Below, piece after piece: positions 28,645-33,074 of a stretch of DNA of 40,201 nt (position 1 is the first letter of the stretch; each line of letters opens with the position of its first letter). Origin of the DNA: a virus. Taxonomy: Duplodnaviria; Heunggongvirae; Uroviricota; Caudoviricetes. The stretch covers positions 1 to 40,201 of IMG/VR virus record IMGVR_UViG_2744054909_000002; one strand, written 5' to 3'. A program made the position numbers and the translations under genes. The notes beneath the pieces were generated by a model. The model had not been told where the DNA came from. It was given only the letters and a program-made list of their open reading frames with translations, and did not search any database.

Positions 28645-29334
28645 TCACACCATCCCGTTCGACTTGTTGCGGTTGTACTTGGCCAGCAGCAGCTGGATCG
28701 GCGTCGGCCCTTGCTCGGCAGCTGGTGCGGCAATAGCCCGGCGTACCGGCGGCACTGGCTTACCCTCGGTGACGCGCCTTTCCCACATGTCCAGCAGATC
28801 GCCTGCCTCGCGTGCCAGTTCACCATGCGTTAACTGGCGCTCGGTGCTGCGGTGGCGCAATTCTACGCAAATGTGGTACATGACCGGCTGCGACCATGGA
28901 AATTGCTCGCTGGAGATGAATTCGAACGAGCTGTTACGCCAGTCCCAGTATTCGGCGATCACCTGGTCAACGTTGACGCCCAGCGCGCCGCCGCTCTGCT
29001 TGCACCAGGCGACGAACTGGCCCGGCGACGGCAGGAATGGGCGCTCCTGGCGGCGGGCAATGCGCATGCCGGCATCGACCTGAGCCATGGTGTGGATCCC
29101 GTTCTCCTGAAACGCCAGCAGCCACTGACGGCGGAATTCGTTCAGGTCTTCCTGGGTGCGGAAGTTCGCCATGCTGGCCGGGAACGCGGCGCGCAGCTCG
29201 TTGAACAGCTTGTTGAATACCTGCGCCACCTGCTCGACCGGCGCGCACTCCTGGTACTGCTCTGGCAGGTTATGGGCCATGCGGCTCATCTGCTCGCGGT
29301 CGTGGTTACGCATCTGCTCTGCAAGAGATTTCAT
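28645..29334 (-). CDS. P: Replication protein P (helicase loader)
   Basis: Close match to lambda P N-terminal half as recalled (..DREQM.R.A.N.PEQY.., ..ARRQ.RPFLPSPGQFVAWC..). Confidence 0.85.
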   Translation of the reverse strand: MKSLAEQMRNHDREQMSRMAHNLPEQYQECAPVEQVAQVFNKLFNELRAAFPASMANFRTQEDLNEFRRQWLLAFQENGIHTMAQVDAGMRIARRQERPFLPSPGQFVAWCKQSGGALGVNVDQVIAEYWDWRNSSFEFISSEQFPWSQPVMYHICVELRHRSTERQLTHGELAREAGDLLDMWERRVTEGKPVPPVRRAIAAPAAEQGPTPIQLLLAKYNRNKSNGMV

Positions 29335-30239
29335 CGGATCACCCCATAGGCCCAGTCAGTGTTGTTGAAGTCCAGATCTGGCTTGACAGCGCGCTGCTCA
29401 CCTCCGGCGTTACGCTGCATTGTCAGCTTGTCCCACTGCTTACGCAGGCTTTCGGGACTCAGGATGTTGGTCTGCCAGAAGTGGTGTTTGCTAGCCCAGT
29501 CATACAGCGCGCAGATGTCCTGGTGCGACCGGTCGTCTATCTGGCGCATCAGGCGAACAGTGTTAGACCAGGAGGTCATGTCCGGGGCTTTGCAGGTTGG
29601 GTTAATCAGCTTCACCCTGGAGGAAATCCACTTAGCTGTCTCGAGGTCTTCAGCAGAGCCCCACTTCGCACCGGATGGTGTGTAGACCGCAGCTTCAGGA
29701 TGAGTTGATAAAAATTTCTTCAGACGTGCGTCAGAGGATTCGTCAGAATTCTCGGACGAAGATCTTTTAATACTGTTCTTGTTCTTGTATTGGGTGTCTA
29801 CCGTTTTCGGGAAGGTTATTCCTGATTTCGGGAAGGATTTTCCCGTTTTCGGGAATTTTCTTCCCGTTTCCGGTTTGTCTAAAATCCATGCTGAAAGGTC
29901 AGTGTTTACACCGACGATTTTCATCATGCCCTGCTTCTGTGAAAAGATGATTTTGCGTTCTGCGAGAGACTTAAGCGCGTCCGATACATGCGTATCGCTC
30001 AGGCCCGTAAGCTCGGCAATAACCGTATTTGTCACGCGGTCCTGTTTCTTGTTCCAGCCGTAGGTAAGCCAGATCACCGCCTCAAAACATTGCCATTCCC
30101 GGCCTGACAGTCTCAGGCGAGGCTTAAGCTGTTGGATCTCGTTAGCGACCTTGGTATACCCGTTCGACAGGTCGGCCATACGACCTCCCGGTTGTTCGGT
30201 TTTATTTGGGAAATTGATTATTTCAGCGGTGTTTGACAT
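29331..30239 (-). CDS. O: Replication initiator protein O
   Basis: N-terminus MSNTAEIINF and C-terminus ..KPDLDFNNTDWAYGV resemble lambda O; internal FPKTGKSFPKSG repeats encoded by iterons. Confidence 0.85.
   Translation of the reverse strand: MSNTAEIINFPNKTEQPGGRMADLSNGYTKVANEIQQLKPRLRLSGREWQCFEAVIWLTYGWNKKQDRVTNTVIAELTGLSDTHVSDALKSLAERKIIFSQKQGMMKIVGVNTDLSAWILDKPETGRKFPKTGKSFPKSGITFPKTVDTQYKNKNSIKRSSSENSDESSDARLKKFLSTHPEAAVYTPSGAKWGSAEDLETAKWISSRVKLINPTCKAPDMTSWSNTVRLMRQIDDRSHQDICALYDWASKHHFWQTNILSPESLRKQWDKLTMQRNAGGEQRAVKPDLDFNNTDWAYGVIR
29801..29880. repeat. Replication origin iterons: four repeats (consensus ccgttTTCGGGAAgg) at 20-21 bp spacing inside O, with adjacent AT-rich tract at 29760-29800
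   Basis: Repeat cores at 29808, 29829, 29849, 29869; arrangement as ori-lambda inside the O gene. Confidence 0.65.
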
Positions 30240-31126: not shown

Positions 31127-31194
31127 ATTAAACATTATGTTTATGTTCAAGTCAACATTATGAATGTTGAGGCGATAAACTTTTAGTTTAGAAT
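31127..31194. promoter_or_regulatory. Divergent PR-like and PRM-like promoters with operator palindrome
   Basis: Minus strand TTGACT (31155..31150) -17- TTTAAT (31132..31127) for cro-like gene; plus strand TTGAGG (31167-31172) -16- TAGAAT (31189-31194) for repressor; palindrome tcaacatt-atg-aatgttga at 31152-31170. Confidence 0.5.
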
Positions 31195-31202
31195 CTTGAT
31201 AT

Positions 31203-31598
31203 ATGAGAAAAAACACACACCAAACAGATAACCCGCAGGTTCGGCGGTTAAATGAAATCATCGAGAAGAAGCGCATATCCAAAGCGGATATAGCGAGAAT
31301 CTGTGGTGTGAGCGCACAATCAGTCAACAACTGGTTTGTCAGAGGAGCGATAGGAAAAAGCTCAGCAATAAAACTTGCCGATGCGCTAGGCGTAAGTCTT
31401 GAGTGGGTTCTAGGTCAGGACGTGGATGCTAAGGACGGTTTGAGACACGACGAACGGAGACTGTTGGAACTCTATAATCAACTCCCAAACGAAGAAGAAC
31501 AACAGAACATGTTGCGGATCGTATCTCTACGGTTGAAAGAACTCGATGAACTGTACGCCAAGTACATGGGACGGCGGATTAAGGGGGATGGTGAGTAG
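31203..31598 (+). CDS. Phage repressor (XRE-family HTH, no peptidase domain; RacR/P2 C-like)
   Basis: HTH KADIARICGVSAQSVNNW; divergent from cro-like gene; no SD, ATG about 9 nt downstream of the -10, so probably leaderless like lambda cI. Confidence 0.75.
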   Translation: MRKNTHQTDNPQVRRLNEIIEKKRISKADIARICGVSAQSVNNWFVRGAIGKSSAIKLADALGVSLEWVLGQDVDAKDGLRHDERRLLELYNQLPNEEEQQNMLRIVSLRLKELDELYAKYMGRRIKGDGE

Positions 31599-31709
31599 CA
31601 CGGTAGTTAAAAGCTACTTACCCCTCAGATGTTTCTGTACCAATGGGATACATCTTAACGATATGCAAAATTCACTTACCAGTTAATTATCATTATATTG
31701 AGAGCTGAG

Positions 31710-32033
31710 ATGGGCGAACAGGTTGAAGAAGAAAAAAGTCAGGAAAGTGTCAATACAACAGCATTGACGCTATCAATATCAAGACAAGAATTTCGAGATT
31801 ATTTTCAACGCCTCGAAGAAAAACATGGCGAGATGGCCTGTCCGCTTTGTAAGCATACGCTTTGGGGAGTTCCTCCACGAGAAGATAGTCAAGACTATCC
31901 TGCAATAATTACCCTTCCTCTACCTCATTCAGCTGGCCGAGGTATATGGGCATTCCCTGTTATATGTGTAGAATGTGGTTTCATTGCCACATTTGCTGCT
32001 AACCGAGTATCACTAAAGGTTCGAGAGGGATAA
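31710..32033 (+). CDS. Cassette gene A: small zinc-ribbon protein (CPLC..CVEC), unknown function
   Basis: ATG 31710; two CxxC pairs about 45 aa apart; AT-rich; stop 2 nt before gene B start. Confidence 0.5.
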   Translation: MGEQVEEEKSQESVNTTALTLSISRQEFRDYFQRLEEKHGEMACPLCKHTLWGVPPREDSQDYPAIITLPLPHSAGRGIWAFPVICVECGFIATFAANRVSLKVREG

Positions 32034-32035
32034 CA

Positions 32036-32419
32036 GTGGCTGCAGTTTGCTTAGATCATCAATCAAGCTCAATTATTTCGATTGATCGGGTTGAAGTATT
32101 TGAGACCTTCCCAAAAATCGAAAATCATGTTGGCGATATTCCTTACACACTTGATGAATCCAGGATATTGTTGCTAAGGAACAGTGTTTCACATCCTGAT
32201 AGCTGTGTTGGGCTGAAAGCATTTTCTGTCGCGCTAATAGTGATGCTAGGTGTTATAGTGTGGTTAACAGGAGGTAAGGTTATGTACTATATCCCTCTTT
32301 ACGCAGCACTCATACCAGTAGCTTATTGGTTAGTTAAGATTGGATTTGCGTATTATGTAGTCAAAACACAAAAGTTACATGTTGACTCGAAATCGTTCTC
32401 GGGAAAAAATCATGGCTAA
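32036..32419 (+). CDS. Cassette gene B: small membrane protein (2 predicted TM), GTG start; internal in-frame ATG 32282 with perfect SD
   Basis: GAGGGA SD before GTG; hydrophobic segments AFSVALIVMLGVIVWL and YIPLYAALIPVAYWLVKIGFAYYVV; AGGAGGT at 32269-32275. Confidence 0.5.
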   Translation: MAAVCLDHQSSSIISIDRVEVFETFPKIENHVGDIPYTLDESRILLLRNSVSHPDSCVGLKAFSVALIVMLGVIVWLTGGKVMYYIPLYAALIPVAYWLVKIGFAYYVVKTQKLHVDSKSFSGKNHG

Positions 32420-32837
32420 CGATAACGTTAAAAATGTAGCTAAAAATGGACTACCTTTTCTAATTGTCTCCCTCATATGTGGTTATGCTACAGATGCTAT
32501 TCCTATCTTCTTTCCTGACGGTGAGTTTCGTGATTGGGCCTACAGATCTGTTCCTTTTCTGTCTTTGATTCTTCTTTTTGTAATCAAAACGTTAAAGGAT
32601 TTTGGTGGAATGTCATTTACAGGTCTGTTATTTACAATATGCTCAAGCCGAGAAAAGAAAAGGCTAAAGATCATTATGGATGACAATCACGCTAGTGATG
32701 CGACCATGCAAGCAGCAAAAAAACGTTATGACGAAATATTACGAAAAGAACTCGAGTTAAGCTCAAGGTTGCTGACCTACATTTCTCAGTGGTCGATCTT
32801 TAAGAAAGCACCGACCCCCCCATCATCTGTTGAATAA
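32412..32837 (+). CDS. Cassette gene C: membrane protein (2-3 predicted TM) with charged C-terminal tail
   Basis: ATG overlaps B stop (ATGGCTAA); hydrophobic segments LPFLIVSLICGYATDAIPIFF, VPFLSLILLFVIKTL, FTGLLFTIC. Confidence 0.55.
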   Translation: MANDNVKNVAKNGLPFLIVSLICGYATDAIPIFFPDGEFRDWAYRSVPFLSLILLFVIKTLKDFGGMSFTGLLFTICSSREKKRLKIIMDDNHASDATMQAAKKRYDEILRKELELSSRLLTYISQWSIFKKAPTPPSSVE

Positions 32838-32843
32838 AGCAAT

Positions 32844-32872
32844 AACCCAGTTACCGAACTGGGTTTTTTATT
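32844..32872. terminator. Strong rho-independent terminator (bidirectional candidate)
   Basis: Perfect 9-bp stem aacccagtt/aactgggtt with loop accg, then TTTTTTATT on plus strand; sits between convergent genes. Confidence 0.7.
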
Positions 32873-33074
32873 GCCCTTTTCTCACCATAGCAACCGCATC
32901 CCGCAATACCCACTTGTGAATGACGTTTCCCACTACCCTGCGCTTAGCCTCTAGACTATCCACAATCGCATCGCGGCTGATCACAATCCCGTTAGCTATC
33001 AGACTGACAACTGCGCCACCAATCTCCCCCGCAATAAACGCTGCGCGGTCTTCTTCCAGTTCGTCACGATCCAT
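32868..33074 (-). CDS. Hypothetical small protein (68 aa)
   Basis: GAGGG SD 6 nt before ATG; opposite strand between cassette terminator and PL-like promoter. Confidence 0.45.
   Translation of the reverse strand: MDRDELEEDRAAFIAGEIGGAVVSLIANGIVISRDAIVDSLEAKRRVVGNVIHKWVLRDAVAMVRKGQ

Follow-up and report, generated by a model that had tools for sequence, protein, structure and literature searches.

A single open reading frame (ORF) can give rise to two in-frame proteins, and several such cases are well described. The holin genes of lambda (S105/S107) and phage 21 (S68/S71) have starts 2 to 3 codons apart that yield products differing by one charged residue, and are located ahead of the endolysin gene in the late lysis cassette. 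In filamentous phages, the gene pairs I/XI (pI/pXI) and II/X use an internal in-frame start to produce a truncated isoform that acts together with the full-length protein. Ranade and Poteete reportedly described in 1993 that the sieB ORF of P22 gives full-length SieB as well as a shorter, counteracting product, Esc. Cas11 is made from inside cas8/cas10d, a defense-related gene that requires this small C-terminal product, with a conserved internal ribosome-binding site and an in-frame start (bioRxiv 10.1101/2020.04.18.045682; PMC11899642). Here, we analyze gene B of a three-gene cassette, A-B-C, in a 40,201-nucleotide (nt) stretch of tailed-phage DNA (positions 1 to 40,201 of IMG/VR virus record IMGVR_UViG_2744054909_000002, referred to below as the window), and present comparative evidence that B is probably nested, with two in-frame products of 127 and 45 amino acids (aa), here called B-L and B-S. 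Nested in-frame products are thus already well known, and B works like the known cases but is homologous to none of them, in a cassette that is itself uncharacterized.

With respect to these systems, B resembles P22 sieB/esc in being a lambdoid prophage gene that would give distinct polypeptides from one ORF in a putative membrane-associated exclusion or abortive-infection context. There is, however, no sequence relation between the two (in a Pfam scan to E=1, neither A, B, nor C matched a SieB family), and sieB lies outside the cI-adjacent slot and has its product switch controlled by the antisense RNA sas, whereas no antisense RNA and no Rfam match was seen in the window. On the analogy with Esc, we hypothesize that B-S could act as an antagonist of the longer product. 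The proposed B-L/B-S pair is also like pI/pXI in that the short isoform is membrane anchored and lacks the cytoplasmic N-terminal domain; in contrast to B, pI and pXI are assembly and export proteins with another fold, size, and genomic context, and there is no homology. In the case of Cas11, it was likewise conservation that first pointed to the nested product, although Cas11 is a soluble ribonucleoprotein subunit of an unrelated family, whereas B-S is a predicted membrane peptide.

The earlier note on this DNA, made from the letters of the sequence, had proposed that B either makes two products in the manner of a holin and antiholin or is in truth the gene for the short peptide. B would share with the holin genes the use of one ORF, alternative starts, and two membrane topologies, and the two-product part of the proposal has strong support from the comparative evidence given below (selection on the Shine-Dalgarno [SD] sequence, an invariant ATG, and a trough in synonymous diversity). 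The holin/antiholin analogy does not hold, as 82 codons separate the two starts of B, both the N-terminal domain and the first transmembrane (TM) helix are missing from the short form, and B is found downstream of the repressor in the immunity region of a prophage that has its own holin-lysozyme cassette (23022-23820, with holin, lysozyme, and DUF2514 genes at 22507-23820). In addition, no homology to a holin family was detected in Pfam, PHROGs, or NCBIfam at E values up to 1. A, B, and C match no toxin family in Pfam either, and neither the antisense RNA control nor the family signature of a type I toxin such as Hok, TisB, or Ldr was found for a peptide that is nested in a longer conserved ORF.

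The start of B in the annotation by the Prokaryotic Genome Annotation Pipeline (PGAP) and in RefSeq (accession WP_000741698.1) is a GTG at 32036, as the earlier note had it, and we confirm both the coordinates and the translation of the 45-aa peptide that it had seen to open at an in-frame ATG 6 nt downstream of AGGAGGT (Table 1). The ATG at 32282 lies 246 nt, or 82 codons, beyond the GTG, which makes it codon Met83 of the 127-aa ORF; it is separated from AGGAGGT by the spacer AAGGTT (32276-32281), and translation from it gives MYYIPLYAALIPVAYWLVKIGFAYYVVKTQKLHVDSKSFSGKNHG (45 aa). The predicted pairing of the internal SD with the 3' end of the 16S rRNA (−11.6 kcal/mol) ranks first for all 588 plus-strand ATGs of the window and is the strongest among the 211 internal in-frame ATGs of its 54 annotated coding sequences (CDSs). 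For the annotated starts (n = 54), the median is −6.6 kcal/mol, and just one of them surpasses the internal site, which also stands out within the cassette against the starts of B (−6.3 kcal/mol), C (−4.3 kcal/mol), and A (−2.7 kcal/mol). As in other nested genes, the in-frame start is thus found with an SD of its own at a functional spacing. In a single sequence, counts of such motifs are at the level of chance and not significant, with 4 occurrences of AGGAGGT in the window versus 3.15 expected and 10 of GGAGG-N4-9-ATG versus 7.0 expected.

The evidence for the internal site therefore comes from its conservation. The conserved cassette is found at loci L009 to L019, L023 to L028, L034 to L039, L042, L044, and L045, and a close set of 13 lineages shows 48 to 70% amino acid identity and 58 to 90% nucleotide identity. 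We observe that all 13 have the sequence NNA GGA GGT NNN GTN ATG, with silent positions at codons 81, 82, and 84 to 88 being variable. Codon 78 ends in A in every lineage, whether it encodes Thr, Leu, or Ser, and the two Gly codons that follow are always GGA and GGT, codons that account for 30% and 26% of Gly codon usage in the cassette, respectively. By comparison, each of the 13 other conserved Gly columns in the cassette uses 2 to 4 codons, among them those of the Gly-Gly-Met of C (DFGGMSF), which serves as a negative control. The Gly at B127 is also encoded by a single codon, but it lies within the overlap with the start of gene C.

We counted parsimony changes on a 12-taxon tree at those columns where all codons are fourfold degenerate (74 to 76 columns across A, B, and C). 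Only five columns, B64, B73, B79, B80, and C2, have no third-base change at all, whereas the other columns have a mean of 4.3 changes and a minimum of 2; the invariance of C2 is explained by its overlap with the B stop. Furthermore, when synonymous diversity (pS) was scanned in 9-codon windows over the 365-codon cassette, the deepest trough was that at B codons 72 to 80 (Table 1) and the second deepest that at C codons 1 to 9, a genuine start that acts as a positive control. Taken together, the invariance of the motif, with its three silent positions, is far more than chance would produce, and SD and start are conserved past what the protein needs, as is seen for nested genes. As a separate observation, codon 64 of B (TCT, 32225-32227) and the third base of codon 73 (32252-32254) are invariant across the 12 taxa, where one such position is expected by chance.

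We also recovered more distant homologues by searching 1.84 billion cluster representatives with a profile, a search that made no demand for Met83 and returned only 18 clusters. These proteins are 150 to 158 aa long and about 30% identical to B, and Met83 is kept in all 15 full-length ones. At this level of identity, it is one of only 8 invariant columns, and the residues on both sides of it are variable (V, F, L, or M before it and Y, H, F, V, S, or A after it). The DNA comparison of distant relatives covered six lineages, with the Gly-Ala-Asn and Ser-Gly-Ala subfamilies lying outside it. In the Gly-rich variants, the Met codon is preceded by GGGGGGGGA, GGGGGGAGG, AGGGGGT, or AGGAGGT, with SD strengths of −10.6 to −11.9 kcal/mol, and a Glu-Gly variant reads G-GAG-GGT and still contains GGAGGG (−9.8 kcal/mol), which in this comparison shows the SD motif surviving an amino acid change. 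A Trp-Lys variant has TGG-AAG-GT. In 7 of the 9 distant loci, at most one plus-strand ATG outranks the internal site. Scans of viral contigs with P0020, P0022, P0023, and P0028 gave no match.

The suggestion that the short peptide alone is the true gene can be rejected on these comparisons, since B-L is judged to be real as well. B codons 2 to 57 show a pS of 0.73, a nonsynonymous diversity (pN) of 0.30, and a ratio of nonsynonymous to synonymous substitution rates (dN/dS) of about 0.2, which indicates that the N-terminal part of B is under purifying selection, and the frame is open in all lineages. Homologues at 48 to 70% identity are colinear with all 127 residues and conserve an N-terminal PxIENxxGD(I/T)P motif. 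The upstream start keeps a constant position relative to the gene A stop in all lineages, with GTG, TTG, or ATG as the start codon and a G-rich SD of −4.0 to −11.9 kcal/mol in the homologues. As in a nested gene, the longer ORF is thus a real protein, as judged from its dN/dS, its PxIENxxGD motif, and its fixed, A-coupled start. Within B, constraint is highest in the segment shared by both products, codons 83 to 127 (dN/dS, 0.13). Automated annotation is itself divided on the start: a Raoultella locus is called as 77 aa in GenBank, from the internal Met, and as 158 aa in RefSeq, and for the PHB10 type a 43-aa gene call also exists.

Hydropathy and an AlphaFold model together place two TM helices in B-L, at about residues 58 to 77 (TM1) and 82 to 109 (TM2), joined by the turn TGGK, and it is in this Gly-Gly turn between the two helices that the internal SD is encoded. 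The AlphaFold model of B has a mean pLDDT (predicted local distance difference test) score of 55, with the two helices alone moderately confident, and places a helix at 82 to 112 in which Tyr85, Pro87, Leu88, Trp98, Lys101, and Ala105 are invariant. Residues 1 to 56 are acidic (4 basic and 9 acidic residues), and the tail is basic (4 basic residues and 1 acidic). The positive-inside rule predicts that B-L, with its presumably cytoplasmic N-terminal region, has both termini in the cytoplasm and that B-S, which consists of the second helix and the tail, is oriented N-out/C-in. We further note that the invariant Lys101 (32336-32338) sits in the middle of the second B helix and that C residue 28 (32493-32495), in the first hydrophobic segment of C, is mostly Asp and in some lineages Asn. 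Purely as speculation, B and C might touch each other within the membrane at these residues.

The sequence comparisons show the motif itself, nucleotide-level selection acting on it, a Met codon that does not vary, and two parts of B that are each under purifying selection. On this basis, we consider it probable that B is nested and gives both B-L and B-S, and quite likely that ribosomes initiate at Met83. Several points weigh against this interpretation. Support for the two putative products is comparative, and the roles put forward for B-S below are inferred. Because Gly-Gly is itself conserved, the three silent positions make up all of the evidence that is independent of the protein, and the 13 close lineages share ancestry, although their silent sites are near saturation. 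In the region from −30 to +30, GGAGG can pair with a downstream CC(C)UC in a modest hairpin of −12.6 kcal/mol, a region more structured than the A/B and B/C junctions, and ribosomes translating B-L could occlude the internal site. Among the distant relatives, the SD of the Trp-Lys subfamily is only moderate (−6.8 kcal/mol), though still stronger than its own upstream SD (−5.9 kcal/mol), and the pattern used to fetch distant DNA contained the Met, so that the DNA set is biased toward it, in contrast to the protein set.

In the mechanism that we propose, B-L would be made from the GTG at 32036 behind a modest SD, and its translation would be coupled to that of A because its start lies 2 nt past the A stop. 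B-L would combine an acidic N-terminal region with a two-helix membrane hairpin, whereas B-S, from the ATG at 32282, would comprise the second helix, with its invariant Trp98 and Lys101, and the basic tail. Since an ATG with an SD of −11.6 kcal/mol stands against a GTG with one of −6.3 kcal/mol, B-S would probably outnumber B-L, which would be a minor species tied to A. Most translation of C would then probably come from ribosomes finishing B-S, by way of the ATGGCTAA overlap, because the SD of C is weak (−4.3 kcal/mol) and C overlaps the B stop, and B-S and C would be a co-produced membrane pair. We regard the case for an excess of B-S over B-L together with coupling of B-S translation to C as evenly balanced.

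More tentatively, B-S might co-assemble with or regulate B-L and C as part of an exclusion or abortive-infection module expressed in the lysogen from the rexAB slot. In one version, B-S would be an Esc-like antagonist or self-immunity factor that restrains a membrane effector formed by B-L and C; in the other, it would be an abundant pore subunit, gated by a few copies of B-L whose cytoplasmic N-terminal domain links them to A, the zinc-ribbon protein. Both versions would have the ratio of B-S to B-L, set by two unequal starts, as the switch. That A-B-C is an undescribed three-gene exclusion or abortive-infection system in this slot, with B-S as its built-in regulator, is an idea that we put forward as unlikely in its entirety.

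Other explanations of the conserved site have to be weighed against the nested reading. The internal SD and ATG could serve mainly to load ribosomes for C by termination-reinitiation at ATGGCTAA, the 45-aa peptide being made but having no role apart from that of the C-terminal part of B, and the weak SD of C in all lineages, the constant overlap or abutment of C with the B stop, and an internal SD that is by far the strongest in the cassette would all fit such a role. This explanation nevertheless still needs real initiation at Met83 and differs from ours in purpose alone, and a strong SD directly before C would be the simpler evolutionary solution. The high conservation of the 45-aa segment within B also speaks for a role of the peptide, though it is equally expected from its role in B-L. 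We consider loading of C as the main purpose of the site to be rather improbable. The conserved nucleotides could also be a DNA-level signal, instead of or besides translation, such as an internal promoter at TGTTATAGT or a cis element similar to aba. The constraint trough reaches about 25 nt upstream of the SD (codons 70 to 77), the third base of B73 is invariant, and most close lineages, as well as L024, L025, and L034, keep a sequence like an extended −10 element. An internal promoter of this kind drives rexB in lambda. BstA has a DNA element, the aba self-immunity site, inside its own 5' end (PMC8585504). The −10-like hexamer is lost, however, in L010, L026, L027, L038, and L044, which keep the SD-like motif and the ATG; there is no −35 element, a two-hexamer promoter scan made no call, and the invariant core is exactly the complement of the anti-SD at the optimal distance from an invariant ATG, so that we assign a DNA-level signal a small probability.

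Pausing at SD-like sites in the mRNAs of membrane proteins is a contested proposal, and the position of the motif exactly between the two TM helices would suit a programmed pause in B-L that aids insertion of the hairpin into the membrane, with no separate product. This would leave the invariant ATG at 6 nt unexplained, together with a Met that is invariant where hydrophobic replacements should be tolerated, and TM1 (58-77) would still be in the exit tunnel with the ribosome at the motif, which is poor timing for targeting; a pause of this kind seems very improbable to us. Least credible of all is the absence of any selection at the RNA level, with Gly-Gly-x-x-Met being a protein-structural motif written in the same codons by ancestry or chance. 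Gly79, Gly80, and Met83 are indeed conserved in the protein, and the window by itself has about as many copies of the motif as chance predicts, yet the lack of any change at the three silent positions, versus the mean of 4.3 elsewhere, strongly disfavors this explanation, as do the 13 other conserved Gly columns that vary, the retention of the motif as GGAGGG in the Glu-Gly variant, and the location of the deepest pS trough. Three further candidates were rejected. A conserved RNA structure received −6.5 kcal/mol in RNAalifold with one weakly covarying pair, and the single-sequence z-score was +0.58; sequestration of the SD by UUUUCU (32222-32227), for which a G-U-rich pairing with AGGAGG is possible, was not predicted by RNAalifold; and no overlapping ORF of at least 30 aa exists in another frame or strand across 32223-32374. 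The sequence TGTTATAGT itself stops 9 nt short of the internal SD, and ATA is used in all 10 lineages that encode Ile there, versus 30% of the Ile codons in the cassette.

Table 1. Positions in the window of gene B, its internal start, and neighboring features
Feature	Position	Strand	Description
Prophage repressor, HTH_3 / Phage_CI_repr	31203-31598	+	Pfam match; directly upstream of the cassette
Promoter-like TTCACT-17-TATATT	31671-31699	+	Just upstream of gene A; from a consensus scan alone, which is not functional evidence
Gene A, 107 aa	31710-32033	+	Zinc-ribbon-like, CPLC...CxxCG; stop 2 nt before B start
Weaker SD GAGAGGG for the B-L GTG	32023-32029	+	−6.3 kcal/mol; within the last codons of gene A
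Gene B / B-L, 127 aa	32036-32419	+	PGAP CDS, GTG start; full-length homologues at 48 to 70% identity
Synonymous-constraint trough, B codons 72 to 80	32249-32275	+	pS 0.21, median 0.74; deepest in A-B-C
TGTTATAGT, extended −10-like	32251-32259	+	Retained in 10 of 13 close lineages; may be an internal promoter or an AU-rich standby site
Internal SD AGGAGGT	32269-32275	+	Third base of codon 78, then Gly79 GGA and Gly80 GGT
Internal in-frame ATG, Met83, proposed B-S start	32282-32284	+	Read from the sequence; invariant in relatives
Nested ORF for putative B-S, 45 aa	32282-32419	+	Stop included in coordinates; TM helix 2 and basic tail KTQKLHVDSKSFSGKNHG
Gene C, 141 aa	32412-32837	+	Membrane protein, helical C-terminal region; SD −4.3 kcal/mol; dN/dS 0.08
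Intrinsic terminator closing the cassette	32844-32873	+	9-bp stem, 4-nt loop, T-run

The window represents a Rac-like lambdoid prophage that carries RecE/RecT, O/P-like replication genes, YdaS/YdaT-like genes, an integrase, and a tail and head module. The slot next to the repressor, in which the cassette is found, is a recognized hotspot of prophage abortive-infection genes, e.g., rexAB and bstA (PMC8585504). Like lambda rexAB and BTP1 bstA, the cassette lies downstream of the repressor, adjacent to it and on the same strand, and is closed by its own terminator (PMC8585504). It includes one or more membrane proteins, and its GC content (38 to 43%) is below that of its flanks (50 to 54%), as in acquired cargo genes ("morons"). 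In contrast to rexAB and bstA, it has three genes rather than two or one, and there is no homology: searches of PADLOC, Pfam, NCBIfam, and PHROGs gave no relation to RexA/RexB, BstA, SieB, or a catalogued defense system. More generally, A, B, and C match no family of known function in Pfam, PADLOC (0 matches), PHROGs, or NCBIfam, the sole family match of gene A above noise being phrog_4293, of unknown function. No PDB sequence is related to A or C, and a literature search returned nothing on the protein accessions or on phage PHB10.

We observe that A, B, and C are conserved together and that the order repressor-A-B-C is found at every locus whose upstream flank is present, with an upstream repressor of one of two types, HTH (helix-turn-helix)-only or S24 cI. 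In the specific case of L044, the order is cro / cI-A-B-C-N, which is the lambda rexAB slot. B and C overlap or abut in all lineages, with the stop of B overlapping the start of C in ATGGCTAA (32412-32419) in the window, and the SD of C is −2.8 to −5.1 kcal/mol throughout. The cassette is rare, being present in 5 of 5426 complete Escherichia coli genomes and in one sequenced phage, PHB10, and its hosts comprise E. coli, Klebsiella, Kluyvera, Cedecea, Raoultella, Serratia, and Yersinia, where it is found in prophages. No near-identical DNA was found in the phage collection, scans of genome contigs gave no relatives, and a metagenome scan gave near-identical copies alone. Just before the B/C overlap there is an A6 run (32404-32409), and one database protein, P0013 (158 aa), is a fusion of a short B with C that is consistent with a 1-nt slip at this run and probably reflects an error in assembly.

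Annotation routinely overlooks in-frame starts inside genes, and pipelines are split on this very locus. The evolutionary signature at B is unusually clean, a perfect SD in a Gly-Gly turn that is kept both through silent sites and through an amino acid change. If confirmed, B-S would add a hidden 45-aa membrane peptide to an uncharacterized cassette in the best-known lambdoid defense slot, and silent mutations in the SD together with M83L would be handles for dissecting the cassette. The locus also offers a worked example of how nested genes can be recognized from troughs in synonymous diversity, with a positive control in the C start and a negative control in the Gly-Gly-Met of C.

Elsewhere in the window, three observations concern the prophage itself. 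No SD precedes the repressor ATG at 31203 (+0.2 kcal/mol), which lies 8 nt past a promoter-like −10 element (TTGAGG-16-TAGAAT, 31167-31194), so the repressor mRNA may be leaderless, like that of lambda cI from PRM. In the Q-like antitermination gene (24676-25485, minus strand), an internal stop is present and the gene is flagged as a pseudogene in an identical RefSeq record, so the prophage may be defective for late gene expression. The O-like replication CDS (29331-30239, minus strand) has an in-frame ATG at codon 21 (30177-30188) after GGAGGTCGT (−11.0 kcal/mol), which is the second-strongest internal site in the window; the annotation may set the start of this CDS too far upstream, or the window may contain a second nested start here.

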